Below, one piece after another: positions 5,887 to 61,178 of a stretch of DNA of 64,000 nt. Under the pieces are notes generated by a model. That model was not told the origin of the DNA and searched no databases. It worked only from the letters and a program-made list of their open reading frames with translations. Source of the DNA: Paramecium tetraurelia (taxonomy: Eukaryota); contig CT867996.1 in assembly GCA_000165425.1 (NCBI GenBank), positions 1 through 64,000 of the forward strand, written 5' to 3'. The position numbers and the translations under genes were made by a program. Numbering within the stretch: the stretch's first letter is position 1; the number at the start of each line of letters is the position of its first letter.

Positions 5887-8269
5887 ATGAATTCGTCTTC
5901 TTAAAAAAATGAGATTCGTGAAAATATGTGTCAAATTCATAACCGAGAGATAATTGCAATAGATCTAAACTCAACAGAAAATGGATCTATTAAATACCTT
6001 TGTTGTGACTGTATAGTTGAGAAATTGAATAACAATAGAATATCAACAATTGAACAAACATAAGCGAGAATTTAAGAATATTAGGCGTTAAGATAAGAAA
6101 AAAAGGCTGGAGAAATCAAAATAAAGCTCTAATAATATAAAATAGTGCTTGAAAAATATTCAGAGTTTAAAATAAATGCTTGTAATTCTTTAGTTAAGAT
6201 CTATGATCAAATAAAAACATAAATTAGTATTCTAGAAGAAAAGCAATCTTTATTGAGAAAATTTTAAACTACGTCTAATTTTTAAGAGGATGTTAAATCA
6301 TTATCTGAATTTCTTTCATTAAATGAAAACTAAATAGAATTTCAATAAGATACCTAATCTTTTGACGATTTAATCAGAGAACTTGAGCTCATTTTTAATA
6401 AGACCGCATACTAATAAACTATTATCACTTTTAAGGAAGCTAAATAGAAAATATAGGAATTCAATGAAGGTAATTAAATTAAATTAATGCCCCTGCAATT
6501 TGAAAATAATAAAGTAATTATTTATATTATCCAGAAAGCATAAAGTTTAAGTAGACTTTGTCCAACCCATAATAAAGAAATACTTCTGATTGACCTAGAA
6601 TCAAAAAATAAATAAATAGAAGAGAGATTTGCTTGCTTAGAATGCGTTGGTGATGAAGGCTTTAATTGCAAATAAAAATCAATTGAAAAAATAAATTTAT
6701 TATGGAATCAAAAGAAAATTAATTAAATTAAATTTGTTGAAGAATTAAAGTCAAAGAGGTAATCAAAATAAGAGAAATTAAATAAAAAGATTTAGTAAAT
6801 GAGAGAGAATTACAATTCAAAAATAAATTCCATCAGTGAACAATTAATAACAAATTTTCCCTTACCGATAACCAAAACAAGTGAACTTAGTAAGTTTAAA
6901 TAAGTTTCAATACAATAATTAAGTAATGAAGAATTGAATTAAACTATTAATTATCTGATTCAATAAGATAATGATAATATTTAAAATGAGTATATGATTA
7001 CTAAAGACATTTAATTTACAAACTCAATAGAAAGTTAATTAGAACAATTAAAATAAAATGATTTATTAGACATTTAAGAGTCAATTAATATTTTGCATGA
7101 TTAATCAAGTATCAAGAATAGTTTATTATTAGCTGACAACAAATTGTAGGGAATTCTTTAACTATCAAAACTAATTTAATAGAGTACAATTGTAGAATAA
7201 TAACAATAGATAAGAAAACAAGAGTTGGATGAATTAATAAGTTCTTCTAAATAAATATATTCTTAGTTGGATTTGTTGAATTACGCAATTGAAAAATTTT
7301 AATAGCACAATAACAAAGTTATTTCTATTAAAAATAAAATATAATCAATTCCAGATCATGAAAATTTTTCAAACATTCAACAACAACTTACTTTGTATTT
7401 GAATAATTTCGAAAAGGATTTTAAGGATCTGAAGAAATTTTGTGAAATAGATTAATTAGAGAGTGCTAAATTGGCTTTACAATAAGATTATACAAAATTG
7501 CAATTAGAAAGTAAAAAGATTATTCAATAAATTAGACAAGGAGTTAGAAATAAATTTATAAAACATAGTAGATGAATTAATTGAAAAATTGAAGGTAGAA
7601 CAAAATAAGAATGCTTAGTGTTAAGAACAATCAATAGTCTATTAAAATGAGATCAAACAATTAGCTTAAAAGATTATAGATAAGGAAGATTTAATAAAAA
7701 CACATGAATCACTGTTTGATAAATTTGGATTAAATTTAAAACCGAAATTATTATAAGATGATTTTTGGGTTAGATTATCCTTTTATTTATAAGAAAAATC
7801 AAAAAAAAAAATCCATGAATCTCTCTTAATTTATTAAGGAACTAGGGATGGATTGAATAAAGATTAATTTTGGAATAAGTGTGATGGAAAGAGTAATCTT
7901 CTTATGATATTTTAATCTGAGAGCGGATACATATTTGGTGGATATTCTCCATGTTAATGGATATAGTATACTGGCAAATATATTCAAGATAATTCAAAAT
8001 AATCATTTTTATTTTCATAAACACATTTTTAATTCTATCCTATGAAAACAAATGGTAATTGTTATGCAATATACTCAAATAATTCATCGGGGCCTGTATT
8101 TGGAGATGGTCATGATATAAAGATAGACAGTAATTTTAAAGATGGCTATTCTAATTTAGGTCATGGATATATATGGGATTAATATCAGGGTGCCTATTCA
8201 AAGCATCTATTTGGATAGGATAAACCAAACATAGCTGAATGTGAAATATATGAATTAAAATTAAATTGA
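5887..8269 (+). CDS. TLDc-domain protein with two N-terminal CxxH...CxxC Zn-finger-like modules and coiled coils
   Basis: Introns 6514-6534 and 7511-7535. The C-terminus has TLDc-type motifs LIYQGTRDG..FWNKCDGK, YIFGGYSP, SFLFS, GPVFGDGHDI and ECEIYEL. The N-terminal module is CQIHNREIIAIDL..LCCDC, and a second copy reads CPTHNKEILLIDL..FACLEC. Confidence 0.9.
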
Positions 8270-11104
8270 AATTTGAATTAGACCTTATTGTGATCCAAAA
8301 AATACTATCTATTTATATCGTTATTTGAAATTTCAAATTCTTCACAAAAAGTCTTTATATATATTTAAACTCTATATATTGATGATTATCTGGGAGAATC
8401 ATTAATATGTTGTAAATATAAACGAGTAGAATTAATTTATAACAATAATAAAAAAAAAACACTATCGAGAATGATAATTGAAATTTTAAAATAACATATT
8501 AAAGTTGATGAACTAGTTATTAATTAAGATAGCAAGGTTTAAAAAATTTAAACACAATATTAGTATTTTCAATAAAAAATAAAAATTGAACCATCTAATA
8601 TAAAGTAATAACCAATTTATTGCTATTTAATTTATGTAAACTTCAAATAATTTGAGTAAATAATCAAAGTTAAAAATTCTCAATTTTACTCTTTGATTAG
8701 AATTAATGTAACAAATAGTTTACAAGGTATCATGATTGCTGATTGGTTAATAGAAGAATAATATTGCTTAGAACATGAACATTAATTTTAAAAAATCTTT
8801 GGCCTAAATATTTTGATATAGATAAGAACCAGAAAATTAATTTTTTATATAATTTATGATTCATAAATTCTAATTAATTGAAGAAGGTTGCTAAATCAAT
8901 TTTAGATGGATTTTATATTCTCGATCTATGTTAATGATGCACTAATTAATGCATTCCATTCCTGTAGCTACATCAAATGTGGATAAAATAAAACCAAAAA
9001 TAAACACATATAGAGGCAGCAAATGGTAGCCACATAGAAGTGAGGATATTGAACCTTTAAAAAACTGTATTATTGTAGTTAACCATTTATTGAAGCTGTT
9101 GTTTAATGTATTCAAGGCACTTGTTGAAATGCATAAATATAGATTTCATAGAATTATTAGAATTTTTTCATTCTTCTTCTTTCTCTTTAGTAGTAGAACT
9201 TAGCCTTTATTGATCCACTAGTAATGAAAGGAAAAAAGAAGTTTTAAGGAAACTAAAGAAACAAAGTTTTAGGCATTAACAAATAGGATACAAAATACTT
9301 TTCTAATGAATCCTACCTAGAATGAAATAATGTATAATATTATTAGCTTCAAATACATCAGTTTTCAAACATACGTATATAATTTTTCCCTTTCATACTT
9401 TCTAAACGAGGGCTATTGTTTTATTAAAAGTATATATAAATTCTTCAATTAATTCTATCAATATATTTGAATATGCAAATACAAAATAACTGTTTAATAA
9501 TTTTTAATACAGTTTATTTGTACTAGAGTGAACTCATAACAAAAGTTGATATTTTAACTTTGATTATTATTAAATGGTAATTATATAAGACAAAATAAAA
9601 AAATTTCTCATGACTTCTAATTCGCTATAATAATATCTAATTAATCGAAGATTTTTGTGAGTACGATTTATAACATTAACAGATTTTGAAATTGCAAATA
9701 AATACCATCATTAAAAATATGATTAATCAAAATTTAAAGTGAAAATAGCCCTCATCTTTAAATCCTCTAATTAGTAAAATTCTAATCAACAGTATTTAAC
9801 TGACAAAATTTGTCTGATTATCAGAAATAAAATGGGTGGTAAGCCAAATTGGCTTTGCATCCAAACAACAGCTCCTAAGTTTATAAATACAGAGTTCCTT
9901 GAGTATTAAGAATTGCCTGTTGTTAATAGTGAGTGATGTCAAGAACTTAAGTGTAAATTTGTTTTAGAAATACTCTACGATTTGGCATTTATCAACTACG
10001 TATCCTTGAAAATAAATCGTAAAATGTATTTTTCTAATTATTTTGGGCACCTTCTCTTCGTTAATATAAAATTAAAATTTTAACCTTTCAAATTTAAAAT
10101 ACTTGAAAAAAATCTAAATTCTTCTGGCTTTTCGCAATTATTTTCACTCTGAGTTATTTCAATTTCCTTTAACCATACAACATTGTGATAAAAGTGCTTT
10201 TTAAATATAAAAATATAACATAAAATTGAACCTTCAGTTCACTTTTTATTATAAATATAGTTCTTTAGTAGCTTTACTACAACGAATCCACTGTTAATTA
10301 TATGCTATTGGAAACTATTTATAGATTATAAGTTAATTCTCTACCAAAAATAATTTAAATGCAAAAACTAAAGTATATAGTCAATTACGATTGCATCCAT
10401 TTTTTTTAATTCAGCTTTTAGATATTTCCTATTAAGAGGTTATCTTCATCTTTCAAAAGCTTTGTTATGATCAATACTTTTGTATCTAATTAAAATATTG
10501 CGTTCATCTATTCACAAATTCTATTTTCGATGCCATCTTGGAGAAATAAAAAATATATATTTACGGGTTAGTAATAAGGTTTGTAGACTAGTATTCTATT
10601 GTCTAAGCAATTTAAAGAAACTGCTGAATAACATGAGTTTTAATATTTGATTCCCAAAACAAAAATTACAATGTAACTTATAAATTAAATTTGATTTACT
10701 ATCAAATATATCAAATCGTTAACATTTAATAATCTTAAGAGACTTATGTTTTTTCTCAATATTTCTAACTCTATTTAAATAGAAATACTCTAACTTATTT
10801 TAATTTAAAATCCTTTTGAAATGGAGCCACTGCTAAGGTATAATAATAGAAAAATGATTTCAGGTAAAGAGAAATAAATTAAAATTTTAAAATATTAATG
10901 AAGTAATAATGAATACAAATATAATAAAAAAAAAAGGATGAATTCATTTAATTTAGTAAAAAGTGCGAATTTATTATTTAATGAATTAACAATCTTGCTT
11001 TGTTCAATTTATTAAAAATTATATACTGAATTGTTGTAGTATGATAAATTAATGGCTTAATATAATAAGAAATAATATAAATTATTACTATTATTTATTA
11101 ATAT

Positions 11105-14523: not shown

Positions 14524-15375
14524 TCAATTAAGACTTAAAGCCAACAAAATGAATCCAAAGAAAAAAAGTCTTTTTTATATTGAGTTTTTACTACAAATTT
14601 CACATTATTCACTACTTGGATCCCAAGCATATGAATAAAGAGTGTATGACAAACATTAACCTTGATCTAAGCTCTCTGGCTCTAAATCAACACATTAGTT
14701 TTAGTTCCAAGTGCATAATGTAACATCTTTTGAATCAATCGAAAAATAGAATTAGCATGATTATTCTGGCAATATAGAGCACTCCAAAGGCTTACATGTT
14801 TCATTCCAATAGCAAGCACTAGGATCACACTCATCTATTTTTTTATAATCAGAACATTAAGTTATTGTTCTTGTTTCACAAGATTAAGTTTCCTTATTTC
14901 TAACACATTGTTTTTCATCATCAGTTGCAAGCCATTCACAATGGTCATAAGGAATTTTATCACAATTTGTGATACTCTTTGCAGACTCATTGCTTTTAGC
15001 CATGCATTTTATTGTTCCAGCCATAATATCAATTGTACCAACATCAGCTTAACACTTTATCAATTCATAGCATCTATTAGCTTGAGTAATTGAAAAACTA
15101 TAATCAGAGCATTTTGTAAATGTTTCACATTTATCAAGTTAGTAATTCCAAGTACATTAAAATGGATCTGGAACACCTTGGCAATCTCCTTTATTAAATT
15201 CTCCACAAGATTTGTTTTGACATAATGATGTATTATTGTTCCAATTGCAAAATTCAAGAATGCAATCTTTGTCTGTTAACAAATTTTAACACGAGCATTC
15301 ATAAAAAGAGGAAAGTTTTATGGTTGAAGTTTAACATCCAACAACCAACAAGGTAAATCCAATCAAATTGATCAT
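14524..15375 (-). CDS. Cys-rich surface protein (Paramecium mini-antigen-like), 283 aa, with signal peptide and hydrophobic C-terminal tail
   Basis: Intronless, 852 nt. N-terminus MINLIGFTLLVVGCQT, then YECSCQNLLTDKDC and periodic C-x-W motifs (FCNW, CTW, CEW, CYW). C-terminus RLFFFGFILLALSLN resembles a GPI signal. Confidence 0.85.
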
Positions 15376-20107: not shown

Positions 20108-22492
20108 TCAACTTTAATGCTCTTAAAATTCTATTTAATCATCCAAAATCAAGCTTCCTTTTTATTTGAGAACTGTTGTAAAATCCATACCTGATTGATC
20201 CATAAATTCTCCTTTATAAAGTAATGCTCCTTATGCTTAAAATATTAGTTATTTGGAGATAAGGAGAATGGTTATATTTGATGCGACTAAATAATAAGTT
20301 AATTAATTACCATTTTATAATAAGGTATTATTTTTAAGTGGGGTTTTTAAAAAAGTAGGATGGTCCTTAAAACAACAATCATAGCCTAGATTTTTTTTTT
20401 CTGTATTAACATCCCATAAACGGAGAGACTTATCTCCGCTACCTGACGCTAATTTCGTACCGTCAGGAGAGAAGCATACTGATCTGATGAAATCATGATG
20501 ATCTTCTAATTTTACCTTCTATTATCCTGTGTTAACATCCCATAAACGAATAGAGTTATCCTTACTACCAGATGCTATTGTAGTACCACTAGGTGAGAAT
20601 GATATTGACAGGACTCCATCACTATGACCATCTAATTAGATTTTTTATTTTCCTGTCTTAAGATCCCATATGCGGATAGAGCTATCTGCACTACAAGATG
20701 CTAATGTTTTACCATCTGGAGAGAAGCATATAGAGCGGACATAATCTCGATGACCCTCTAATTTGGCTTTTATTTCTTATCTCTTAACGTCCCATAACCT
20801 GATTGAGTTATCTCCGCTACCAGATGCTAATGTAGTGCCGTCAGGTGAGAAGCAGACAGAATTACTATGACCAACTAGTCTGGCCTTTTCTTTTCGTGTT
20901 GTAATATCCCATAAACGAACAGAATGATCCGCACTACCAGATGCTAATATTGTATTATCCGGAGAGAAGCACACTGTTAGGACTGAATTAGTATGACCAT
21001 CTAATTAGGCTTTTTATCGTCCTGTCTTAACATCCCATAAACGGATAGTTCTATCTCCGCTAACAGAAGCTAACGTAGTTCCATCACGAGAGAAGCAAAT
21101 TTAGTTGACCGCATTTTCATGACCCACTAATTTTGCCTTTAATTCCCCTGTCTTACTATCCCATAATCGAATAGAGTTATCTGCACTGCCAGATGCTAAT
21201 ATTGTACCATCCGGCGAGATAGAAACTGAATTGACACTACTCTCATGGCCTTCAAGTTTATTTAATTCATTCAATTTTATATTCTTCCATTTGCAGTTAA
21301 ATAATTAAGCGCCATTTAAATTCACACCACCTATATCGACATTATCAAATTGGGATCCATTCAAATTACATCTCAAAAAATTTCCTCCAATCAAAGAAGT
21401 ATCTTTAATCCTAATATTTTCAAAACTTTGCTCTTTTAGATCTACCTTCATCTCAACTAATAAATTAAGTGAATTTGAGCCACATTAGATGAATTAACTA
21501 TCAATAGCTGTTAGGTTAACTAGAAACTTTAAAAATTCGATAATCTTCTCATCTTTTTATATCTTTTTAATTATATTTATTCTAGTTTCTATGTATGCAT
21601 CTGTTGAAAAATTTTTTTTATTAAAATCAAGTTAATGAATATCTCTAAATACAGTGGTAATAACCTAAAAGTCATTTTTCAATTTCACCTCTCTGCTCTT
21701 AGGAGATAAATTCGCTTCATTATACATGTATTCTTCCTGATACTTTTGAGCGAATTCTTTTTAAAGAAATATAATAATATTTGAAATTTTATCTTATTTT
21801 AGCATCTTTATCATCTTATCAAATAATTTTTGATTGATACTTTTTGATAAAGCTAACACTTCATACAAATCTTTCTCTCTTTCATTGATTTATACTATTT
21901 CTTACCTTGGTTCAATCCTTATTTATAATATCAATTCTTACTTAATCTTTGAAGTAATCTCTTTCATTTCTATATTCATCTTTTCACAGAAAGTTTTAAT
22001 ATCTTATTCCCATTAATTCTTTGTCTTTTCCAGTTTTACCAATTAAGAATTTTGTAAATCATTCCAATCATCCAATGATTCTCCTATTAGAATTTATACT
22101 AATTATTCTAAGTTAGAATTGGAGAATTCTGATAGATTATCATTTTAGTTGAAAAGATTCAAATACAATTTATTTTACTCTTCAATGAAATCATACATTT
22201 AATTGATTGACTTCTCCAACTCTTCCCAAATTTTCCTCATTTTGCTTTCTGTTTCAGAGAGCATAGATTTAAAAGCCTTTCTCTAATGGATTAATTCTTC
22301 AGTATTTTGATCTAGCTTAGATTCTGAAAATCTCTTCATGACCATTTCTTTAAATCTTTTTATTGATACTATATTGCTATTAAACTAATGCTCATCTAAG
22401 CACTCTGAACAAAGTTTCCTATCGAATTAGCACGTATGAGGAGCGATACATATTAAAGACACTTGATTTTTAATATGATTGGTACAATTCAT
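20108..22492 (-). CDS. Zn-finger / coiled-coil / pentapeptide-like / 7x WD40 protein, about 786 aa
   Basis: One intron, 20287-20310; spliced length 2361 nt. N-terminus [23 protein letters not shown]. Pentapeptide-like segment [41 protein letters not shown]. Seven repeats of GH..V..VCFSPDG..LASGS.D.SIRLWD. Confidence 0.93.
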
Positions 22493-24352: not shown

Positions 24353-25616
24353 ATGATTTAAGATGCTACTGACAGGGAATGTGTTTATAAACACAAGGAT
24401 TGTCCTATTCTGTCAGTGCTTGATAATTAAAATTAGAAATTAAAGGAAAATTTGATATGCACAGATTGCTTAGATCTCTACGAGTTAAGCTGAAATATCA
24501 CGTCAACTAATGAAATAGTAAAAAATATATTTAATTATTAGGAAACACTTAATGAATAGGTCAAAACCTTAAGAAAATAAAACATTTATGAAATAGATTA
24601 ATTTACAAAATATCTTTTCAAACTGTACTGATATTATTATTGTAAATTCATGTTAATGGAAGGATGAATTAATTCAAAATAATGAGGATCAATTAGATGA
24701 AGAATGCAGAATGAATAAATTAGATAAATTAGAATTATTATCGTAAATTAGAAAGCTCTGTTGCTAGCATAAAATAAATTGTGAATATTGTAGAGAAAGA
24801 AACAGAAAATTTAAAGATATTGCTTGGATAAGACTAATATTATGAAGAATTTATGCTATACCGATAAAAAAAGTATTAGTTAAAACTTTAAAATTTCGAA
24901 ACACATTTGATCAATAACATATGCATACCGAAACATGTGATGGACAAACTTAAGAAGTTTCTTAGGAATTGTGGTGGTTTGTTCTTGCATTCAATAAGGA
25001 TGGTTCTATAATGGCTGGGGCAGCAAAAAAGGATATAAAAATATAGAATTTTGAAAATGGGTATTTATAAGAAAAATAAGTTGGTGTTTCATTATTAGCT
25101 TAATAAGCATAGCACACATATTAGTTAAATAAGTATGAATGAAGATGATACTTAATTAGTTTCATGCAGTGATGATAAAACAATTATAGTTTGGGAAAAG
25201 AAAAGAAATTAAAAAAATAAATAAATTCAAATGGTTTCAGAGTTTGTTTTCTTAATTAAGATACGGTTTCAAGAAAAATAGTGTTCAATTCATATTTTAA
25301 ACAAGAATCAGATCAGTTTATTGAAATAAAAGATTTGTAAATCAACTTAAAATATTAAGACTTAAAAGATGGATAATCCTTATTTCCATCCATTTAGAAT
25401 AAAGCCAAGTAAATTTTTATCATAAAGCATAACAAATATGTTTATTAATTGAAATAACAAAATTAAACATTTAGCCTTCTGAGTGAACCTACAGACTGTA
25501 GATCATGCAAAAGTTATGGAAATGTTACTGAGGATGGAAAATATTTAATGCTTTAGAATGATGAAACTTCATCATTTCATGTATATGAATTGAAAATACC
25601 AATGAGTATAAATTGA
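24353..25616 (+). pseudogene. Decayed Zn-finger / coiled-coil / WD40 gene
   Basis: Begins CVYKH...LICTDC, then has an in-frame TGA at 24491-24493. Later WD fragments (AFNKDGSIMAGAAKKDIKI, SCSDDKTIIVWE, GNVTEDGKYL) are separated by apparent frameshifts or deletions. The 5' end is uncertain. Confidence 0.65.
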
Positions 25617-25691: not shown

Positions 25692-27163
25692 ATGAATCAG
25701 ATAAAAGAGCTTGAGATTAAATGTTCTATAGAAGATCATGATTATGCCTAATTAGTTTGTTTAAATAAAGAGTGTAAAGCTAATAGAGTTTATTGTGACT
25801 AATGTATAAGAAATGGAGATCACATTGCTCATATTAATGATTAATGGAATATATAAAAATTAATTCTGATTTTTTAGAATATAGAGAAAGAAAGCGAAAC
25901 CTTAAAATCAGATTTGTGTTTGATAAATTAAGAAATTAATAAAATATTTACTTAATTAAATTAAAAGATTACAAAGAAATATCAATATTCCAAAGAGAGA
26001 TTATAAAAATTGGATGCAAAACAATTACATTAAATCTTAAATTACATTATTAAATATGAAGAAGTTGAAAAAAGTGTATTAAACGAAGTTAAAAAATGTT
26101 CAGATGATATGATCATGCAAATAAAAAGATATACTTCAGAATTGAAAATAGAAGAGTTACTCATTAAAAATTCAAGAAAAATAAAATACAACACAGTTAT
26201 TTTAAAAAGGTATTGAATCATTAATTTAGGATATTAATTATATTAAGAAGATAATGAATATGAGGAAGCAATCAAATTATTTGATGATGCATTATTTATT
26301 AATCCTGATCATTTGAATTCTATCACTTCGAAAGGTATAAACTAAACTAAAAATTTTTTAGCTGAATGCTTAAAATAGCTTAAGAATTACAATGATGCAA
26401 TCCTATATATTGATAGAGCTTTATCTATAGATTCAGTGCAAGTCGATTCTTTATATACAAAAGGTAAAATCCGTAATCAATGTTTTAGCTCAATGTATAT
26501 ACATGCTTGATAATTTCAATGATGCAATTCTATGGTGCGATAAAGGTTTATTTATAGATCCAAAACATATCAATTCTTTATAAACGAAAGGTTAAAATTC
26601 AGACAATAATATTTAGCGGAATGTTTAAGAATGCTTGGCGATTACAAAGATGCAATTCTATGGGCTGATAAAGTTTTGTCTATCGATTCAAAAAATGTCA
26701 ATTCATTACATACTAAAGGTTTGAATTCAGTTAATAAGATAATAGCTGAATGTTTAAAATGGCTTGATAATTACAAAGATGCAATTTTATGGGCTGATAA
26801 AGCTTTATCTATCAATTCAAAGCATATCAATTCATTATTTACAAAAGGTATATTTTACTACATTAGGCGAATCATTAAGAATGTTGGGTGAATATGAAGA
26901 CGCCATTAAGATATTAGATGTAGCATTGAATTAAAATCCGAATCATGATTAATCTCTCGTCTGCAAAGGTCTATTGTATTTCTATTCTTTTAGGAGCCTG
27001 TTTACAATCATTATAAAAATATTAAGAAGCCATCAATTGCTATAATTAGGCAATTTAGATCAATCCAAATTATTAATTTGTTCAAAATCAAAAAAGTATA
27101 TATTAGTTTAGATCTATAGTTGTTTGTGAAAATCAACTGAAGAAACAATAAATTAGAAAATGA
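25692..27163 (+). CDS. B-box-like Zn finger / coiled-coil / 7x TPR protein; apparent +1 frameshift near 26166-26175
   Basis: N-terminus CSIEDH..VCLNKEC..YCDQC..H..H. Phase-1 introns at 26210-26229, 26335-26361, 26464-26488, 26591-26616, 26719-26745, 26848-26866, 26969-26993 and 27096-27119. TPR units read AECL..L..Y.DAI...DKALSID.K..SL..K. Confidence 0.85.
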
Positions 27164-29010: not shown

Positions 29011-30746
29011 ATACTATTTTTTCGATATTGATAATAAGGATAGGAATTTGATAGTTGTTAGGGATAAGAATGATATTCGATGACAATAGAAAATTAAGGA
29101 TTGGATTTACAATTTTATGTATTAAGAGGGAATGATAACAGATATTCAACAAATGAGTTATTAAATAAATGGACTATTATGGTTGGCTTTTCTATTCTAT
29201 ATTTTTTCCTTTTTAAAAGAACAAGCTTAAAAGATGCTATAGTACATCGACTTTGAATTTCATTAAGCATAACTGATTTCTTTCAATCTGTTTAGTTCAG
29301 TTTCCTTGAATCTCGTTTTTAAATTTTTATTGCTTAATATCGTACAACACATTTTTGCCATTTCAAAACTGTGGTGTATAAACGAATTCATTACTGATAA
29401 TCAAATAGACTTAAAATAGCAATCAACAATCTGAATTTGATCAATAGCTAAAGAGAGCAAAAATTTTAATTCTATTGGTAAAAATGGATGCTTCTCTCTC
29501 CTTGCTTCTCAAACCATTGCTTAATTTGAAACAGTAAGGTTCGAAATCTATTTTGATGAATAAAATTAAATAAATTAAACAATTCTAATTACTAGAATTA
29601 AAAGGTTTTAATCAACCAGTGAAATGGATCTAGCACATCTTAGAGATCATGAGTGAGAAAAATCCAAATAATATAGATCTATCAAGGTGCTGTATCTACT
29701 CGTAAAATATGATCCACCATAGGAATTGGCTACCCATCTTTGCCTACTGTCATTCGTCAGGGTTGGGAGGCAAATTTTTTGGTTCCTTCATTCCCTAATT
29801 ATCTGACTAAGGTAGATGTCGGATGAGACTGGTTATGTCAGCATCAATCAAATGATTTTGTGGCAAGAGAGTCATGATCTTCTCAGCTAGTGCACAGATT
29901 CCCTAACTTATTAAGAGTTAACTATATTTTTAACATAGTAATTTATTAAAAATGATCATTAGCTTGAGAGAAAATACCCAGATCACTGATAAAATTGAAA
30001 GCCTTGAAAAGTCAAGAACCCATTTAAGATAATTTTTGATTTCATCTTACTTGAACTAATAGTGATGTTTGAAAATAAATAATAATGATCTCAACTACCA
30101 GCAAATAATCATTTCAATATTTTACTTTAACTGTAAACTCTATTCCATGTAAACAATTTCTAATAAGAAAATTAAGCAGAATTTAAATAATAAAATATGT
30201 AATTTTCATGATTAAGAATTAACAAAAAATATAAAATGGGAAACTAACATTATTTTTTAAATTTATCCAATCCTAAGTATTTTATATTAAGAAATTCTTC
30301 ATGAATTTATTATTAAACTATTTCTTAGGTAAATCAACTTATTAGAATTTGAATTTTTAATAGCATTTATGAAATGATAAATTTATGCTAGAACATTGTG
30401 AAAGTAGAACATTCAATAAAAATTAACTGTTTTGAATAAATCTAAATTGAAATTGAGTAATCGAATTTAAGTTGAATATTCTACAAAAAAAGAAATCTTT
30501 GTAGAAATCTTTTTTGGAGTTTGGCCCTAAAATGCTTGGGTTGCGGTTATTTATTTTATGCCTACCATTATTATGACTATTAAAATTAAAGGAAGACTGA
30601 GATTTAAAATGATAAGAAGGATATAATTTTCATTCTACTTTACTTTGTAAATAATTTATTCATGTTTAAGTTTAAATAATTTTTTTTTATGATCACTTAA
30701 TGTATTTTTGTTGATTGAATTATTAAATTGTGAACTTTAATTATTC

Positions 30747-32597: not shown

Positions 32598-32905
32598 TAA
32601 GAGAGCTTGAGAAATATAAGTTAATAAATATAAAGAGTATAATTATTTAAAATTCGTGAGGTAAAAATCTTTAATATTATCAAAACTGTTTTTGATTATT
32701 CTAAATTACCTAAACTAAATAAAAAATACATTAAATTATTAATTAGATGAAATTTATGAAACATAATCATTTTTTTAGAATAAATGAAAAAGAAGATTAA
32801 TAATCCAAATCGTATAAGATTAAAAAAGCCGAAGACTAACATTTTGATTAATTTATTCTTATAACTATAGCCTGAAATGAAAACTTTATTTTTCATTTCC
32901 TTTTT

Positions 32906-41688: not shown

Positions 41689-43245
41689 TCAATAACAAAA
41701 TTTCAATATCTGTAATACCTAATTATGCAAATTGTTCACCGCTATTGAACTTGATTCTTATGATATAGAAAGTATTTTATAGTTCCCCTTTATTGAGTCT
41801 TACTTTACTAGTTAATCTTTATCGTCAATTTAGCAAATTTCTAAGCAGTTATCTTATTCTTACACTATCACGATGTTAGGTATGCTTAAATGACATAGTC
41901 TACCAACAATGTGCAATTTATCTAATTTTTAGATATTAATGAAATTGCCATTTTTGTTTTATTTCCAATTTTTAATTTCCAATCCTCCGCTAATAAATTA
42001 ATTTGATTTCACCCAACTGACGCTATAAATCCTATCACTATGAGCTTTCTTAATTGGATCACATAAAGGCACCCAAATTAATTAATTTGGCTTAGTTACT
42101 TGTTACTTCCATATAAATATGTCCTTATTATGAGTGCATACTACAATATTCATCGTAAATTGATGACAACTCAAATCCTATACAGGCCAAAAGAAATCTT
42201 CTAAGACAGAATGTTCTGACCACGTTTCATTTTCTTGATCTTTGATGTAGATTATTATCTTGGGAGTTGGTTACGCACATATTAAAAATTATTTCTTTTC
42301 AACTGACACCATACATGGACTCCACCCTTCATCTTATTTAGTTCCATTAATGATTTGTTTTAATACAAATGATTTATCTGTTTAATAGATCAAAATATTG
42401 TTTGATGCACTTCTTACAAAAAGTTACTGTTAGTTCATTCCTAAACTAATTACATCATTTCTTATAGTTTGTAATTTTTTCAATGAGCCTTAGGCTTCCA
42501 TCTTATAAATATCTGTTACCTCTTCATTTTTATTTGTTATATACAACACCTTATCGTTGAAAACACAAGTATCATAAAGTTAATCTAGTTAATTAATGAC
42601 CTGTAATTTACACAGTTCCGAGGTTTTGAAAAAATTTTCATTTTTAGCCAAAGTATGTTCTATTACACACTCCTTCGTATATGTTACGAGATACTCACTT
42701 AATGATTAAAGTTGAATCTTTAGGTTTACTTGTAATTATTCTACTTCTTTCGATAACTACTAATTTATAAGTTCTATTGATTTGATTGTTTATTGAATAA
42801 CTTTTGAAAATTATGAAGCTGCGTACATATTATCATTAGAACTCAAAACAACCGTTTAAGCAATATTTTACAACTTCGATAAAGTTAATTAGTCCTCTTC
42901 TTCAACTTAGAACTCATTTTATTTCTCTATTAGGTTAATTAAAATATTATTATTTTAGTTTTCTATTATTTAAAGCAATTCACTCGTTTTCTTTTTAAAT
43001 AATTCTTAAATATTGGAGATTCTTTTCTTTAATTCTTTTTAAGATAAGATTTAAATATTTTATAGAGATCTGATTTCCTCAACTCCTGATTAATTAATTT
43101 CTTTGAATTTCTGTAAAACTCTAGAAATATTTTCTCTACTTTTTGATGGACATTCAATACAAACTGCTCTTTCACCAAGTGGTGTATTAACGTCGATATC
43201 AATTTGTATAATTAGTTTGTTATGTAAGGGGCAGTTAATATTCAT
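41689..43245 (-). CDS. Zn-finger-like / coiled-coil / divergent WD40 protein, 518 aa, intronless
   Basis: 1557 nt, ATG to TGA. N-terminus MNINCPLHNKLIIQIDID..ERAVCIEC, a Q/E/K-rich helical middle, then WD-like blades such as HSDRIYSVSW..QFISGGLEIKNWK. Confidence 0.8.
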
Positions 43246-44689: not shown

Positions 44690-45726
44690 CAGAATTGATT
44701 TCATAACTTTTTGAAACAGAAAAGCTGCAGAAATCGAAGAATATTTTTTAGGATCCTGTAAATCTTAAAATTCTATAACATGATCCAGCAATAGGACCAA
44801 AATATGAAAAAAATAAAATAGTTTCAAGATCTATTGTCGGAAAACCTGAAATATTCAGAAAGAAATAACCTACTCAGAACATTCATTCAAATTAAGAGTT
44901 CCATATGCCTACGCAACAGATAAATATGCAAGAATCAATTAGTCTAGCCAAAAAGGAATCTCCATTACAAAGAAGATTAACACAATTAAAAGTTGTTTAA
45001 AGTCCTGTTAAAATTTCGAAATAAACAAAGTATGAGAAGGTAATTACAGGTTCTGAGTTAATCAGTAAAATTGCTCATCTGGAAAAAAGATTAATTTAAA
45101 ATAAACTCGATGAATAATAGCAATTTGATAACATGCCATTTTTTTAAAAATAAAATTTATATCGAGACCAAAGAGCCTTAGAAGATTTTGATAAATAAGA
45201 AAAAATTCATTCTGAACTGCTTCATTCCTTATCAGCTCGCATATCAAGAAACCCAAGTTGTTCTTTAATGATGGATTTATACAATTTTAGAAGAAAACAA
45301 GAATATTCAAATACAAATGATAAAATGAGGCAGTTATCAGAAAATAAAAATCAGGAAATTATGTACAAATTCTATAATAATTTAGAGAAATCCAAGAATA
45401 AAACTAGATACCCTTTTATATCTGTTCTGATAGGCAATAAATTATTAGAAAACCACACATTTTTGAAAAAGATGCAACTATTTCCAACATTTTAAAGCAC
45501 ATGAATGAGGAGAAAACCTATTAAAGTTTTACAACTAACAAAGTTTTAAAAGAAAAAGAATTAAAATATAAATTATTAGTAAAAGATAAAATTAATATAA
45601 ATATTGATGAATTGATGATAATTGGATAATCTAAATATGAGTAGGAAATCTCCATAAACCTAAACCATAAATATGTAATCAAAGATATAGAAAAATATCA
45701 AGGAAATGAGGAGGAAATATTATGAC
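44690..45726 (+). pseudogene. Disrupted hypothetical-protein remnant
   Basis: Coding-like stretches (KYEKNKIVSRSIVGKPEIFRKK; MMDLYNFRRKQEY...) with frame changes between them. Boundaries are approximate. Confidence 0.3.
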
Positions 45727-45773
45727 ATTAGAATATTTATTCTTTTATTAATATTATGAATTAATCATTTTTT

Positions 45774-48700
45774 TCATTCGTTTTATTGATCAAATCTGGT
45801 GCAACTTGTGATTTAATCTGGCTTATTTGCCCAAGGACTATTATTAATAAAAATATTTACATCGAATATATGATTACTTCATAAATTTATTATTCTTATT
45901 ATTCGTTCAAATATCTTAACTTTATATTGTAATTAAATCCAGCTACAAGTTATTCATGAACGCTAATTATGGATTCAAATTCAAATCCTTCCTTTTAAGG
46001 ATTAAATTTTGTGTTCACCTCATTAATTGCTTCTTCAATTACAATTTGGTTAGAATTACTAAATTTATTTTCATTTAGTAATTTCCATGATCCTGATGGT
46101 TATCTCTTTGATCCTCTTAATTAGTTGAATTATTATTTTGGTGTTTCTATTGTCTTTTAGAATTCGGAAGATGAACTTGAAGTACTTTATTAAGCAGGAG
46201 TGTTACCTTCTTAGGTAAATTCTCTACTAATTTAAGTTGCTTAACTATCTATTTTAGTTTAATTTCCAGCTCCTAATTCAACATTTTCAATGTTTGTTTG
46301 ATTAAAAACATTTGTGAAATTAGAATCTATTGATTAGTTTACAATTCCTTCTTAAATCTATTAGTCTAATTATTTTTCACTTTAAATATCATTGATTGTA
46401 ACATTGTAAATATTTTCACTAAAACTTGAGTTAGAAATTTGGTTTCTATTAGCATGAATTGTATTTGCTGAATTTGATTGTTAAGATTAATAAGTACTAA
46501 TATTTCCATCATTATATTTTGTGCTATTATTTGTATTATAGAAAGATTACTAGTTGAAAGTTTAATTTTATGTGGATTGGTTACCATCTTAATATCCACT
46601 CATTTATTCACTTTTGAAGACATTGCTTTGAGTTGAATATTATATTTGTGAATATTCTCCATTCTATTTTGATTAATATGATTCACTTTCGTTGATTGAG
46701 GATGAAACTAAATTTGAACTATTTGTGTTAATATTTCCATTTGAAACATATTAGTTTTAGGTAGATTGTGATTAATAATTAGTTTGATCTCGTAATTTAC
46801 TGCTACTTGATGAATTAATATTTCTATCAATTTCTCCATTTATTTATTAGGTATTACTGGAGGAATTGAAATTTTGAATTGTTGAAGACGAACTACCAGA
46901 TTCTGTGCTTTAATATATTTGCTCTTACTATTAATATCTTTCTGATGAAGTTTTGTTTAATTGTGCTTGTCCTTAGCCATTCTGATAACTAACTTCTCCT
47001 TTTCCCCTATTTAAATTATTTTGAATTGTGTAATTATCATTGTATTAAAGACCATTTTAAGATAAATTTTTCGGTTTAATACTAGTATTTAGCGGATATT
47101 GCCAGATGAAACTTTAAATCAATGTGCCATAAAATACAGCATTATTATATCCTTAAGAATAAGAACTACCCGTGTAAGGCTTGTAAACAACTATGCTGAA
47201 TTGCAAAGTAGCATTTCTAAAAACTGTATTTCCATGTGAGTCATATATTTTATTCAATGTAATTAATTCATTATCATTATAATAGTAATATGTAGAATTA
47301 TTACCTGACTTTGGCTTATATAAATCCGTTTAATTAAATATAACTATCTATTAATATGACTACATAGATTAGTTATAAAACATAACAGTCTAAGTGGAAT
47401 TATTTTATTAGGATTGAACTTCTTGATTTCTCAACTTTAAGCTAATTTTAGATTTTTAAAGTTTTGATCGAGTTGATAATGAAATGCTAGACGAATTTGT
47501 TGTATTTGAGGTATTGCTAGAATTAGTATATGTATAATAATTGGTATTTGTATTGTATTATGGATATGAGTAATTGTATTATGATGGGTAACTTCCATTT
47601 GTAAAGTTAGTGTTATTAGTGGTATTTGAGGTATTACTAGAATTACTATATGTATAATAATTGGTATTTGTATTGTATTATGGATATGAGTAATTGTATT
47701 ATGATGGGTAACTTCCATTTGTAAAGTTCGTGTTATTAGTGGTATTTGAGGTATTACTAGAATTACTATATGTATAATAATTGGTATTTGTATTTTATTA
47801 TGGATATGAGTAATTGTATTATGATGGGTAACTTCCATTTGTAAAGTTCGTGTTATTAGTGGTATTTGAGGTATTACTAGAATTACTATATGTATAATAA
47901 TTGGTATTTGTATTGTATTATGGATATGAGTAATTGTATTATGATGGGTAACTTCCATTTGTAAAGTTCGTGTTATTAGTGGTATTTGAGGTATTACTAG
48001 AATTACTATATGTATAATAATTGGTATTAGTATTTTATTATGGATATGAGTAATTGTATTATGATGGGTAACTTCCATTTGTAAAGTTCGTGTTATTAGT
48101 GGTATTTGAGGTATTACTAGAATTACTATATGTATAATAATTGGCATTAGTATTTTATTATGGATATGAGTAATTGTATTATGATGGGTAACTTCCATTT
48201 GTAAAGGTCGGGTTATTAGTGGTATTTGAGGTATTACTAGAATTACTATATGTATAATAATTGGTATTTGTATTTTATTATGGATATGAGTAATTGTATT
48301 ATGATGGGTAACTTCCATTTGTAAAGTTCGTGTTATTAGTGGTATTTGAGGTATTACTAGAATTACTATATGTATAATAATTGGTATTAGTATTTTATTA
48401 TGGATATGAGTAATTGTATTATGATGGGTAACTTCCATTTGTAAAGTTCGTGTTATTAGTGGTATTTGAGGTATTACTAGAATTACTATATGTATAATAA
48501 TTGGTATTTGTATTGTATTATGGATATGAGTAATTGTATTATGATGGGTAACTTCCATTTGTAAAGTTCGTGTTATTAGTGGTATTTGAGGTATTACTAG
48601 AATTACTATATGTATAATAATTGGTATTTGTATTGTATTATGGATATGAGTAATTGTATTATGATGGGTAACTTCCATTTGTAAAGTTCGTGTTATTAGT

Positions 48701-49859
48701 GGTATTTGAGGTATTACTAGAATTACTATATGTATAATAATTGGTATTAGTATTTTATTATGGATATGAGTAATTGTATTATGATGGGTAACTTCCATTT
48801 GTAAAGTTCGTGTTATTAGTGGTATTTGAGGTATTACTAGAATTACTATATGTATAATAATTGGTATTAGTATTTTATTATGGATATGAGTAATTGTATT
48901 ATGATGGGTAACNNNNNNNNNNNNNNNNNNNNNNNNNNNNNNNNNNNNNNNNNNNNNNNNNNNNNNNNNNNNNNNNNNNNNNNNNNNNNNNNNNNNNNNN
49001 NNNNNNNNNNNNNNNNNNNNNNNNNNNNNNNNNNNNNNNNNNNNNNNNNNNNNNNNNNNNNNNNNNNNNNNNNNNNNNNNNNNNNNNNNNNNNNNNNNNN
49101 NNNNNNNNNNNNNNNNNNNNNNNNNNNNNNNNNNNNNNNNNNNNNNNNNNNNNNNNNNNNNNNNNNNNNNNNNNNNNNNNNNNNNNNNNNNNNNNNNNNN
49201 NNNNNNNNNNNNNNNNNNNNNNNNNNNNNNNNNNNNNNNNNNNNNNNNNNNNNNNNNNNNNNNNNNNNNNNNNNNNNNNNNNNNNNNNNNNNNNNNNNNN
49301 NNNNNNNNNNNNNNNNNNNNNNNNNNNNNNNNNNNNNNNNNNNNNNNNNNNNNNNNNNNNNNNNNNNNNNNNNNNNNNNNNNNNNNNNNNNNNNNNNNNN
49401 NNNNNNNNNNNNNNNNNNNNNNNNNNNNNNNNNNNNNNNNNNNNNNNNNNNNNNNNNNNNNNNNNNNNNNNNNNNNNNNNNNNNNNNNNNNNNNNNNNNN
49501 NNNNNNNNNNNNNNNNNNNNNNNNNNNNNNNNNNNNNNNNNNNNNNNNNNNNNNNNNNNNNNNNNNNNNNNNNNNNNNNNNTCTTCATATGTGTAATTAT
49601 ATTAAGTTTTATTCACCGTTGTAAAGAATATGGATTTAATTGCGGAATCATCTATTTTAAACATAAAAGTACTTATTTTTTCACTACTTGCAATTTCTGC
49701 TTTTGGTAGGCTAGATGTCTATTCAAGGTGAAGAATATGATTTATTTCTTCTCTAACTTAGATGTTATTCTTTGCTTTATTAAGTAATTATTCAACTGAA
49801 TCTTGTCTTGCCGTAACGCTGAGTACTAACAAAATAGCAAACATTGATAAAGTTTTCAT
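45774..49859 (-). CDS. Large secreted Asn/Thr/Ser/Tyr-rich repeat glycoprotein with a C-terminal cystatin-like domain (spans a gap)
   Basis: Signal-peptide-like start MKTLSMFAILLVLSVTA, then the gap, then 40-aa repeats and a long N/S/Q-rich region. It ends SGSW...HEQLVAGFNYNIKL...YS(intron 45838-45860)IPWANKPDQITSC. Continuity across the gap is inferred. Confidence 0.8.
47502..48912. repeat. 120-bp tandem repeat, about 11.8 visible copies, continuing into the gap; coding on the minus strand
   Basis: The sequence recurs every 120 nt with few substitutions. The unit encodes GSYPSQYNYSYPQ(Q/Y)NTNTNYYTYSNSSNTSNTTNNTNFTN. Confidence 0.98.
48913..49581. other. Assembly gap (N run) within the repeat gene
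   Basis: Run of N directly following the tandem array. Confidence 1.
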
Positions 49860-55218: not shown

Positions 55219-55245
55219 ATTTATATTAATATATAGTAAATGCAA

Positions 55246-56862: not shown

Positions 56863-56952
56863 TTTGTTAACGGATAAAATTAATTAATATTAAATTAAAA
56901 ATTTTATTCACATATATATACAAATTAAAGGTGGGGGGTGACCAATGCTCTA

Positions 56953-57793: not shown

Positions 57794-60151
57794 TCATTAA
57801 TTATTTTTTTATTTTAAAGCTTTTTCTTTCCTCTCTATTTCTTTTAAACATATTTCTAACAAATAAATTTAAAACAAATAACCTTTTAACTTTAAGCTAT
57901 TTTCATCATTGGGATCTATTATTAAAGCCCTTTCAATCACTTTTTGTGCTTACTTTGGCTCGCCTTACTTTCTTAAACAATTGCCTAAAATACAGTTTAG
58001 ACTTACTTAATCCTCTTAGACAAAAAATTCGATTTTTATCAATATTAAGTGCTTTTTCATAGCATTCTTATGCTTCTTTATATTTCGTTAATAATCTTAG
58101 GCTTTCTCCTAAAGTTTCAGTAAAATATATACCTTTTCCGGTTAAAGACATAGAATCATTTTCATTTAAGTCTAATGACTTATTATAATAATGAATTGAA
58201 TCTTCATATCTTCCTAAACATCTTAGACTTTCAGCTAAGAAATAAACAAAAAATACACCTTTTCCTAATAAAGATAATGAGTGATTTTAATTCAGCTTTA
58301 AGGCTTGATCATAAAATTCTATTGATTTTTGATACTCTCCCTATGCGCTTAGAATGTCACCTAATTTAATTTAACACACTAACCTCTTCCTCTTAAATTC
58401 ATAAAGAAAATCGGGTCATCGCTTTATGATTCTCCATTAGCCTTATTTAAGGATTCCTAATAGTATTCATCTGCTTCTTTGAATTTTTTTTGCATTCTTA
58501 AGCATTCTCCTATAAAAATATTAATAATGAGACCTTTTCCATACAGCGATAAGCAATTTTTATTTAGTTTTAAAGCTTTATCCAAAGTTTCTAATGACTC
58601 TGGAAATTTATGCATTAATCTTAAGCAATTTGCTTTGCCATTTAATGATGGAATATCATTTGGGTATTTTTCAAGAGCCTTCTCATACAATTTTAAAGCC
58701 TCTTCATATTTTCTATCCTTTTTTAAATTATCAGCTATGGATTATTAATGTAAATTACCAGAAATACAGAATTCAAGAACTTCGTTTTTATCGAAAGGTT
58801 CAGGTGCTGTTAAGTTGGGTGTTTATTTTTCATCTAACTAGTCTTAAATCGATTTATTAGATTCATCTTCATTGTTTTAAATATACAGTGGATTTTCTGA
58901 GGTCCTAGTTTAAAATATGCCACTAATTAAAGAAGGGTCTTCTGTTTGAAAGTCAACATCTTGTTTTTCACCTTAATTTGAATCATCAAAATCCATAGGT
59001 ATTGTATTTTGTTCCAACTCAAATAAGCATAAACCTAAAATTTAGTACAGTTTTTAAAAAAAAATACCTTTTCCAAATAATGAATCTACATTTTTCTAAT
59101 CGATCTCTAAAGCTAAATCATATTATTAAATAGCTTCTTTATATAACTCTTAATGCCTTAAACATTCACCTAAAATATAATTTTATAAAACCTAATCCTA
59201 CAAGAGATAATAAATTTTTTTCATCCATTTACAATACCCTCTCATACAAAGGTTTTGATTGTAAATAATCCTCAAGCATTCTTAGACATTCACCTAGAAA
59301 TTTTATGATTCTCTTACCTTTTCCAACTAATGATGGGATATCATTTAATTCAATTTCCAACGCTTTGTCATAATATGGAATTGCCACTAAGAATTCTTTT
59401 AGCAATCTGTGGCAATCACCTAAGCTTCTCCAACAAATTAGGTTTTTTTGGTCTATATCTGTAGCTTACTTATAAATAACGATCGATTCTTTATACTTTT
59501 CTTATTTTTTTAATATGTCAGCTAAAAATTTGAATTACTTATTAAACCTGTTTAAATATAATAATGAATGGATCTTTTTTCTTCTTCGGTTAATTAAATG
59601 GAGGGTTTTTCATTATTTTAGTTACTTGATTAAGCATTATCATAGATCGTATCTATTTTATTATCTTCATCACTTTAGTTAATTTCAATTGTTTCATTTT
59701 TAACATTTACCAATTCAATCAATTTTTTTATTTCTTCGATGTATATATTACTAATATTCTATATTTTCTTCTTAATCTGGTCAGATTTCTTATCGAATTT
59801 TAAAATATTATCAAGCAATTTGTGTTTTTAATTACTTTGCGAAAGATTGAGGTCTACAGAATGTTATGCCATAATAACGGCCTATAGTTGTTTAATAGGT
59901 TCTGTCACAGAATTACATAATGAAGATAAGTAATCCTCTAATTCTTAATATTTCTAAACCTGATCTTGGATATAGAGTTCAGCTTCTTAAGAGTTTACTA
60001 GTTGATGATTTTTGTGATTTTCAAATTCTACACATTTATCACAAATGAATCTAAATTCAGAACAACTTTCAGCTAGGCAAATGGATTTTACTACGCTTAG
60101 GTGATGCCCTAACTAGCAATATAGTTCGATCCATTATGATTGCTACGACAT
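57794..60151 (-). CDS. B-box-like Zn finger / coiled-coil / two-cluster TPR protein with 10 introns
   Basis: N-terminus CQLGHH..ICLAESC..ICDKC..HKNH. Phase-1 introns at 59522-59547, 59294-59317, 59170-59191, 59035-59067, 58735-58758, 58510-58533, 58361-58383, 58235-58258, 58109-58132, 57985-58006 and 57856-57882 (10 within the TPR arrays plus one before them). An acidic linker separates the two TPR clusters. Confidence 0.9.
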
Positions 60152-60256
60152 AAATTTTAAATATGAAATCTGTTAATAAAAGAATGATGTTATAGAATAT
60201 ATTTATTTTTGAGGATTTGACTTTGAATTATTTGTTTATTAAATAAAATTTATTCA

Positions 60257-61178
60257 ATGTAAAATAATAACATTATGTGCGCATACCACCCAGAATCACC
60301 TGCACGTTATATATGTCAAGGTGAGAGTTGCTTCGAAAAAAGAATATTTTGCCATGCATGCTTGAAAAACAACAAACATATGCATAGTGTTAATAGAAAT
60401 GAATTAATAGAGGAATTACCATAAATTTTGGAGGGTTCACGTTAGGATTGTGATCACCTTTTAGAATTTATTGAAGAAACCTTTAAAGAAATCATTTTAT
60501 TTAAAGATTATTTAATTAGGGCTATTAGAAAGAAATATCACATTTAAATAGAGTTATTTAATGAAATTAATATTGAATCTAAATGCTAAGCATTAGATAA
60601 TTTAATCAAATTCAAAGAAGATTCAAAAATTATTTAATAAGTATTGGATCAACCATTTAAGACAGTTTTATCACATATTAAAGATGGAATAACAGATGTT
60701 TGTTTAGAATAAGTAACTTACCTAGGATAGATGACTGAATAAGAGCGACAGTAATTTCAAAATCATATCACCGAAAGTAATTTATTTATTGAAATATTAG
60801 GTTAGAATTTATTTTAATCCAACCGTTTGGAGGAAGCTTTAGAAAAGGTAGAGAGAGCACTAATTATAAATCCGAGAGATCTAGACGCTCTTATTTAAAA
60901 AGGTTTTCTTATTTTAAATGTTAGGCAATATATTAATGAGACTTCAAAGATTAAAGGAAGCTCAATAGCAATTTATTTAAGCTCTTAAAATTGATGAGTT
61001 GCATGTTACATCCAGGTTTGCATTAGGTATATATTTTTATAACTTTCCAGGTTCTTATTATATACGTACCAATTAAAGAAGACAGGCACTGCAATAGTAT
61101 TTTAAAATAATAGATATTAATCCTGGTAATCAATAAGCAATAATTTAAATTGATTAATTGCTAGAAGAAACTTATTGA
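60257..61178 (+). CDS. B-box-like Zn finger / coiled-coil / 3x TPR protein, 283 aa
   Basis: N-terminus CAYH..YICQGESC..IFCHAC..HMH. Phase-1 introns 60777-60800, 60903-60924 and 61027-61050; spliced length 852 nt. Confidence 0.88.

Follow-up and report, generated by a model that had tools for sequence, protein, structure and literature searches.

Eight genes in a 64,000-nucleotide stretch of Paramecium tetraurelia DNA (contig CT867996.1, positions 1 to 64,000; hereafter the window) encode proteins that are otherwise dissimilar and that each begin with a module rich in Cys and His. Two questions arise from this locus: whether the modules belong to one family, and, if so, how close the proteins that carry them stand to the TRIM (RBCC) proteins, which are defined by an N-terminal RING, a B-box leading into an antiparallel coiled-coil dimer, and a variable, target-binding C-terminal domain (SPRY, NHL and others). 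The initial annotation of the window, made from its sequence, had described a RING-less, TRIM-like family of oligomerizing proteins with interchangeable C-terminal domains (here called heads), and had suggested fast turnover and an immune-like role. We find that the nine modules at the eight loci (Table 1) form a single family with six subtypes, combined in different proteins with different heads, and that structure prediction supports a B-box2-like fold for the subtype with two putative zinc sites.

A family of Cys/His modules in six subtypes

Aligned to one another, the nine modules (m1–m9) share three invariant Cys, which bears out the description of eight loci starting with a related module. 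The regular expression C-x2-4-H-x18-24-C-x2-C, which was written after the modules had been seen and is thus post hoc, matches 10 six-frame sites in the window, vs. a mean of 0.51 (maximum 3) in 100 nucleotide shuffles and a mean of 0.26 (maximum 2) in 100 residue shuffles. The tenth site, at 4874 on the plus strand, was without support from a hidden Markov model (HMM) and was rejected as a chance match. Leave-one-out HMMs recovered four of the seven separable modules, m5 (E = 2.4e-3), m6 (1.2e-4), m8 (2.6e-5) and m9 (1.4e-5); m3 was the top non-training match, though weak (E = 0.13), m4 and m7 were not among the 12 best, and m1 and m2 could not be separated from each other because they share one ORF (open reading frame). 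Since only part of the modules was recovered in this way, the nine alone do not prove one family.

A wider sample was obtained by running a profile of the nine modules against 1.84 billion proteins, which gave 51 cluster representatives with E ≤ 1e-3. The same N-terminal motif is carried by 50 of them; the exception, P0039, a Cys-rich VWC/PSP94 protein with no relation to the family, was discarded as a false match. In most of these 50 representatives the module (in two-module proteins, the first one) lies within the first 25 residues. All named matches come from the Paramecium aurelia complex, namely the eight that bore a name among ten representatives looked up and 20 of 20 in a further profile search that listed at least 20 proteins, and the family has thus been seen so far only in this species complex. 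Residues 1–240 of the protein encoded at 60151 (minus strand), used as a query, found only the protein itself, in a search whose sensitivity is limited by its word index.

The 71 modules that we collected from 60 proteins were assigned to six subtypes: type A (21 modules, pattern [32 protein letters not shown]), type B (16 modules, pattern IKCS...H....L.C.N..C...R.YC.QC...G.H..H.), types C (14) and D (12), which occupy respectively the first and the second position in tandem proteins, type E (3 modules, resembling m7) and type F (5 modules, resembling m4 and m6). A profile of all 71 modules gave E ≤ 1e-6 for all eight window ORFs, the next ORF having E = 0.015. Profile–profile comparison with hhalign joined the subtypes in a chain, A–B (91% probability), A–F (86%), B–F (85%), E–F (87%), C–E (93%), D–E (97%) and C–D (97%); each of these seven links scored 27–49, vs. 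maxima of 12–19 in 20 column permutations, so that every link stood above all 20 of its permuted controls and the proposal of one module family was upheld.

The subtypes differ in the ligands that they retain. The outer pairs are nearly universal, C-x2-4-H being present in 70 of the 71 modules and CxxC in 68 of the 71. Both inner Cys/His positions between these pairs are kept by 35 of the 37 modules of types A and B and by none of the 34 of types C to F; after CxxC, two or more ligands follow in 15 of the 16 type B modules and at least one in 19 of the 21 of type A and 8 of the 12 of type D, with none in types C and E. Types A and B can thus be written C-x2-4-H ... C-x3-5-[CH] ... C-x2-C ... 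H-x1-3-[HD], types C, E and F are reduced to C-x2-4-H and C-x2-C (0 of 22 have inner ligands), and type D is intermediate. Where the inner ligands are lost, types C and E have Asp-rich stretches (AIDLD, IDIDV). The initial annotation had given a full ligand pattern to the members with tetratricopeptide (TPR) heads and a reduced one to most WD40 and TLDc members; locus by locus this agrees with what we find, except at m3, which belongs to a WD40 protein yet keeps seven ligands, its subtype having the fuller set.

Fold, stalk and heads

The B-box2 pattern is C-x2-H-x7-C-x2-[DC]-x4-C-x2-C-x3-6-H-x2-4-H, in which ligands 1, 2, 5 and 6 form one zinc site and ligands 3, 4, 7 and 8 the other; the B-box fold sets two short strands and a helix around the two sites. 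Types A and B have the eight ligand positions, but these are more widely spaced than in B-box2 (e.g., C-x4-H-x6-C-x4-C-x6-C-x2-C-x5-H-x2-H). The modules would be zinc-binding, as judged from their ligands, and if they are wired like B-box2 the reduced ones would keep exactly one whole zinc site.

For the two-zinc type, an AlphaFold model of m3 (type A; residues 1–70, 28 aligned rows) has a predicted local distance difference test score (pLDDT) of 85. Compared with 48,161 chains by exhaustive VIA alignment, its eight best rows were all B-boxes or B-boxes with a coiled coil (Z 6.3–3.9): TRIM28 B-box2 with coiled coil on top (Z 6.3, root-mean-square deviation (rmsd) 3.1, 64 residues aligned), then TRIM72 (5.4), TRIM5alpha (5.1) and the Toxoplasma preconoidal-ring chain 9ya0_AA (5.0, rmsd 2.5 over 50 residues), with a second TRIM28 entry, mini-TRIM5, MS1043 and TRIM29 in rows 5–8. 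TRIM B-boxes also led the Foldseek list for this model (rmsd 2.1–2.3 over about 45 columns). As leads only, we add that the ESM Atlas model of residues 1–60 of the same protein, P0012, lies nearest to clusters of ciliate WD40 (TM 0.90) and TLDc (0.81) proteins and then to the zf-B_box part of TRIM9 (0.64), and that zf-B_box is the first named family by language-model features (0.78–0.82).

Several results weigh against calling the module a B-box. The Pfam model zf-B_box (PF00643) stays under its cut-off of 24.1 bits at m8 (14.4 bits, E = 0.045) and m9 (13.3 bits, E = 0.094), misses the other seven of the nine window modules, and matches none of the 35 scanned relatives at E ≤ 1e-3; bare modules draw only sub-threshold B-box, UBR, ZZ and zinc-ribbon matches from Pfam. 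Three sequence-profile searches of the PDB returned no B-box match, one profile having weak matches in the helical part only. Foldseek gave no match at E ≤ 1e-3 for the m3 model, and all the Z scores above are below 8, a range in which, by the tool's own caution, a match may be due to a common arrangement. The weight of the m3 comparison lies in the fact that its top rows are uniformly B-boxes. The likeness to a B-box proposed in the initial annotation thus survives as a predicted fold of the two-zinc type and finds no counterpart in Pfam above threshold or in PDB sequence profiles; we regard a B-box2-like fold that runs directly into a helix as supported by modelling for that type.

For the one-zinc modules (types C, D, E and F) another reading deserves attention, namely a simple zinc knuckle or ribbon that has no relation to types A and B and is like them only in position and in the spacing of its Cys and His. 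Direct comparison of the A–C and B–C profiles fails (hhalign probability 1–2%), and the unity of the family therefore rests on transitive links; the model of a type C module (pLDDT 74) finds only generic zinc-knuckle, RING and U-box folds (Z ≤ 3.9; the best are the Rabex-5 zinc finger at 3.9 and the Bre1 RING at 3.8), with no B-box among its best matches, a resemblance to B-box2 having been seen in the type A model alone; and m4 and m7 were missed by the leave-one-out HMMs. Such independence is nonetheless improbable in our judgement, given that type F is linked to A, B and E, and E in turn to C and D, all above the permuted controls, that the predicted order of strands and helix is the same in the type C and m3 models, that modules of every type are N-terminal and followed by a helix, and that the four ligands kept are the very pairs that would form one complete site of a B-box2 cross-brace.

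Between module and head runs the helical region, which begins 3–8 residues past the last ligand in the m3 and type C models. For two copies of P0010 (277 aa) the predicted complex scored 0.61, vs. 0.00 for the best control; this result passed a mark that 21 of 30 solved homodimers attain and none of 23 solved monomers does. At least 83% of contacts were common to the runs, with a partner pLDDT of at least 79. The closest contacts (63–84, 66–81, 70–77 and 59–88) pair residues that sum to about 147, and the predicted helices therefore run antiparallel about residue 73–74, with residues 117–124 packing back onto the antiparallel pair. The pass may, on the other hand, reflect the model's memory of TRIM structures, and the alignment was not used. 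An antiparallel helical homodimer, that is, the TRIM arrangement, is thus supported rather than demonstrated, and the oligomerization proposed at the outset finds backing in P0010, the one protein for which it was predicted.

No RING family appeared in any Pfam scan of the window proteins and their relatives, and the modules lie at or near residue 1; the description of the family as RING-less therefore stands. As the RING is a defining part of TRIM proteins, its lack places the family outside TRIM proper, and it also implies that the protein itself is not a RING-type ligase. In its two other defining traits the family agrees with TRIM, by prediction for the module followed by an antiparallel coiled-coil dimer, and by direct assignment for the variable C-terminal domain, which is WD40, TPR or TLDc in the window and also SPRY in relatives.

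Pfam assignments among the 35 relatives comprise TLDc (2), TPR (5, one of them weak), WD40 (4, one with pentapeptide repeats), sub-threshold SPRY (2) and a false match (1), with nothing at E ≤ 1e-3 in 21, a group that includes many short fragments. P0072, a P. octaurelia protein of 1193 aa, combines tandem C and D modules with a SPRY domain that scores 28.9 bits, above the cut-off of 26.3; the SPRY domain of P0063 scores 24.1 bits, and UniRef names P0037 'B30.2/SPRY domain-containing' and P0044 'SPRY domain-containing'. Three kinds of module thus each occur with two different partners: type A with WD40 (P0012, P0029, P0041, P0050, P0064) or TLDc (P0033), tandem C and D with TLDc (P0007, P0025) or SPRY (P0072), and type F with SPRY (P0063) or a WD40-like domain, which supports the view that the C-terminal domains are interchangeable. 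Type B was found only with TPR.

One exchange may be recent. P0007 and its P. octaurelia orthologue P0008 are 79–80% identical up to about residue 600 and only 53% identical across TLDc, and the TLDc of P0008 is 70% identical to that of P0025, the N-terminus of which is only 49% identical to that of P0008. This mosaic suggests gene conversion or replacement of the head; accelerated divergence is the alternative.

Orthologues occur in P. octaurelia, P. pentaurelia and P. primaurelia. In three of the four comparisons of single-module genes the module is the most conserved part or is tied for it, at 84% vs. 59%, 79% vs. 58% and 67–74% vs. 31–51% identity for module vs. coiled coil; the exception, P0010/P0013, has 80% in the module and 83% in the coiled coil. 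Among tandem comparisons of P0007, the module leads in two of four and the first module leads or ties in all, while the second module does no better than the first coiled coil when compared with P0009 and P0015 (50–52% vs. 50–52%). The retained orthologues and the conserved module speak, on sequence comparison, against fast turnover. A frameshifted and truncated copy of the TLDc gene, P0018, lies on a different P. tetraurelia contig and would, together with the broken loci described below, fit gene turnover; in Paramecium, duplicates that stem from whole-genome duplication commonly decay.

The eight genes and their surroundings

Window G+C content is 20–28%, introns are about 20–35 nt long, and long ORFs appear only when TAA and TAG are read as Gln; recorded proteins identical to window ORFs are P. 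tetraurelia macronuclear products. Because TGA is then the only stop, greedy splice modelling over-extends ORFs, and gene models were taken from the database.

Table 1. Loci of the family in the window, with their modules and internal features
Feature	Position	Strand	Module start	Content
P0007, intact, 778 aa	5887..8266	+		tandem one-zinc modules, long helical region, TLDc
P0007 m1 (type C)	5923-6036	+	5923	
P0007 m2 (type D)	6553-6672	+	6553	
P0007 25-nt intron	near 7511-7535	+		
P0007 TLDc	about 7739-8257	+		
P0012, intact, 778 aa	20108..22492	-		m3, helical region, pentapeptide repeats, seven WD40 repeats
m3 (type A, 7 Cys/His)	22373-22492	-	22492	
P0028, disrupted member	24353..25613	+		m4, TGA, helical and WD40-like remnants in other frames
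m4 (type F)	24377-24490	+	24377	
In-frame TGA directly after m4	24491-24493	+		
P0011	25692..27119	+		m5, helical region, TGA, about seven TPR units, each with a short intron after it
m5 (type B, 8 ligands)	25716-25832	+	25716	
In-frame TGA of P0011	26214-26216	+		
P0003, intact, 559 aa	34837..36516	-		m6, helical region, degenerate beta-propeller-like C-terminus
m6 (type F, one-zinc)	36361-36480	-	36480	
P0014, intact, 518 aa	41689..43245	-		m7, helical region, C-terminus
m7 (type E, one-zinc)	about 43126-43239	-	about 43245	
P0006, intact, 735 aa	57797..60151	-		m8, helical region, TPR repeats
m8 (type B, 8 ligands)	60001-60124	-	60124	
P0010, intact, 277 aa	60257..61178 (database model from 60275)	+		m9, helical region, TPR
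m9 (type B)	about 60275-60394	+	about 60272	

The heads named for these loci in the initial annotation were recovered in part. TLDc was found in P0007 (129.5 bits), WD40 in P0012, and TPR in P0006 and P0010 and in the downstream part of the P0011 locus; the P0028 locus retains a single WD40 repeat at the Pfam threshold (27.1 bits, ORF 24715–25449). WD40 stayed below threshold in P0003, at 16.2 bits vs. 27, and the C-terminus of P0014 has no Pfam family, WD40 appearing only in the source name of its orthologue; P0014 shares 69% identity with its orthologue P0020.

In this assembly two of the eight loci contain in-frame stops, in agreement with the earlier mention of damaged members in the window. 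At the P0028 locus the database protein is only 46 aa long, no GT..AG intron with a length that is a multiple of three spans the TGA that follows m4, and transcription is low, with a 27-nt intron (25133–25159) spliced in one RNA contig; no RNA gap was reported at 24491, where depth is shallow at about 1.3. The database model of P0011 ends at the TGA at 26214, after 174 aa, and its orthologues P0017 and P0026 extend into TPR. No multiple-of-three intron spans this TGA either, and a 20-nt GTA..TAG intron leads to another stop; here too transcription is low and RNA cover shallow. P0012, which is intact, is transcribed, with a 24-nt intron at 21917 spliced in RNA contigs. RNA depth over its WD40 repeats (20464–21391) is 10–20 times that over its unique N-terminal part, with many mismatches, loose ends and 'goes back' joints in the same interval; this excess is probably cross-mapping from many WD40 paralogues and not a true difference in expression.

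The two type B, TPR-bearing genes at the end of the series, P0006 and P0010, stand head to head about 105–123 bp apart and may share a promoter region. Their modules, m8 and m9, are only about 20–25% identical, from which we take them to be an old divergent pair.

A tenth member may lie at 32415–34025 on the minus strand (P0066), on the evidence of sequence similarity: within it, 33929–33618 matches residues 92–188 of P0063, the type F protein with SPRY, at E = 1.3e-8 and 42% identity. By extrapolation its module would fall inside a 417-base run of N at 34073–34489; no module is visible just below that run, and no Pfam family was found in the P0066 ORF. The locus is transcribed.

Other features of the window lie apart from the family. 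A 669-base run of N (48913–49581) lies within low-complexity sequence in which several frames stay open, and this accounts for the long 'ORFs' listed at 45698–49859, which are artefacts. On the minus strand, an ORF at 39362–40864 has a hydrophobic, multi-pass-looking N-terminal half and the start of a PIP5K catalytic domain at its C-terminal end (46.2 bits); it looks like a receptor–PIP kinase fusion, the kinase probably continuing in a further exon. A transcribed gene at 30693–32580 (plus strand) has repeats of the form SGGG.Y...G.K.G.W..L that look MORN-like by eye, neither of its ORF pieces having a Pfam family at E ≤ 1e-3. At 14524–15375 (minus strand) a Cys-rich ORF of 283 aa, with regular Cys spacing and a hydrophobic C-terminal end, resembles a ciliate surface protein and has no Pfam family. 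Finally, a short ORF at 61500–61950 (plus strand) shows by eye a histone fold of the NF-YB/Dr1 type (...[26 protein letters not shown]...) and, after it, an acidic tail read in frame-1 and frame-2 translations.

Possible roles and relation to known systems

We are moderately confident that these are RING-less, B-box-like, coiled-coil adaptor or scaffold proteins. Each would open with a 40-residue cross-brace zinc module that leads straight into a helical stalk; the stalk would pair antiparallel with that of a second copy, giving a rod both ends of which carry a module and a C-terminal head. The head, whether WD40, TPR, TLDc or SPRY, is a protein-binding domain that has been exchanged among module subtypes in evolution. 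Most likely, we infer, the proteins act as dimeric adaptors: partner binding would fall to the head, and the zinc module would serve for docking or for assembly into larger structures, a role for the module that is modelled on the B-boxes of TRIM lattices and of the Toxoplasma preconoidal rings.

Other roles can be read from the same data. A structural scaffold of the cytoskeleton or cortex, in which RING-less B-box and coiled-coil rods build large assemblies as Toxoplasma Pcr4 and Pcr5 do, is a rather tentative candidate: the m3 model does match the preconoidal-ring chain, the B-boxes of Pcr4 and Pcr5 are needed for assembly or localization according to the portion of the report available (10.1101/2022.06.06.494926), and tandem modules recur in the TLDc/SPRY subfamily, while TLDc or SPRY heads would be atypical of structural filaments. 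Immune-like proteins, as the initial annotation had it, would be TRIM-style sensors whose heads recognize bacteria, endosymbionts or viruses and which undergo birth and death under positive selection. That the architecture parallels TRIM class IV, down to the SPRY heads of relatives, that eight diverse members cluster in 64 kb, that two of the eight loci have in-frame stops and the paralogue P0018 is frameshifted, and that the TLDc head diverges sharply between close orthologues would all agree with such sensors; orthologues are nevertheless kept in at least four sibling species, decay of duplicates is ordinary in Paramecium, and WD40, TPR and TLDc are generic interaction domains, so we consider an immune role quite unlikely. 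Equally doubtful, and broader in reach, is the reading that ciliates have a modular recognition system of TRIM-like kind, with an origin separate from, or very long before, that of the animal TRIM classes. It would be made up of RING-less dimers of B-box and coiled coil, their heads (SPRY, TLDc, WD40, TPR) being swapped by recombination within genomic islands, for recognition of non-self or cargo, and it would include a half B-box not described before. The half B-box, if true, would retain a single zinc site, with acidic residues in place of the other, a change comparable to the origin of the U-box from RING.

Returning to the adaptor or scaffold proteins that we favour, their likeness to TRIM proteins (TRIM5alpha, TRIM28, TRIM72) lies in the predicted B-box2-like fold that passes directly into a helix, for which these gave the best structural matches, in the predicted antiparallel helical homodimer, and in the variable C-terminal domains, including SPRY in relatives. 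It is a likeness seen in predicted structure, with no homology found at the level of sequence. The Paramecium proteins lack a RING, fall under the Pfam B-box thresholds, space their ligands by x4 and x6 where the B-box has x2 and x4, in many cases have only one zinc site, and bear TLDc, TPR, or WD40 heads with pentapeptide repeats. Outside animals, alveolates included, only the MATH-containing TRIM subfamily A has been reported, in the part of that study available to us, and none of six ciliate or protist terms occurs in the text as available, apart from the 'alveolates' of the abstract (Marin 2012, PMC3503706). Among the matches listed in literature searches on B-boxes in Paramecium or TRIM proteins in ciliates, no such family is described, and none of the Pfam scans or source names seen labels members as B-box proteins.

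The nearest RING-less analogues are the preconoidal-ring proteins Pcr4 and Pcr5 of Toxoplasma and Plasmodium. In the accessible portion of that report they are described as having tandem B-boxes and as pairing through an antiparallel coiled coil to give a heterodimer; the B-boxes are needed for localization or for assembly into the preconoidal rings, and not for dimerization (10.1101/2022.06.06.494926). They too are alveolate proteins without a RING, in which, from what is available of the report, B-box-type modules flank an antiparallel coiled coil, and tandem modules have their parallel in the Paramecium TLDc/SPRY subfamily; the match is one of structure only. As far as that portion goes, they differ in that the Pcr B-boxes are canonical two-zinc modules and internal, whereas those of Paramecium are N-terminal, in that the tandem B-boxes appear close together (from a schematic legend), whereas about 165 residues separate the two modules of the Paramecium tandems, and in that Pcr proteins are without TLDc, SPRY, TPR or WD40 heads. 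A looser comparison, by analogy only, is with the U-box, which keeps the cross-brace fold while its metal ligands are replaced, as the Asp-rich stretches of types C and E may have replaced theirs; the type C model matches RING/U-box folds weakly. The U-box, however, has lost both zinc sites and binds E2, whereas the reduced Paramecium modules would keep one site and nothing about them suggests E2 binding.

Proteins that join a B-box and a coiled coil to a variable head are generally regarded as an invention of animals. The Paramecium family would offer a second, independent setting in which to ask what a B-box/coiled-coil chassis does without ligase activity and how its heads are exchanged, and the series from two-zinc to one-zinc modules may be useful for learning how cross-brace folds lose metal sites.

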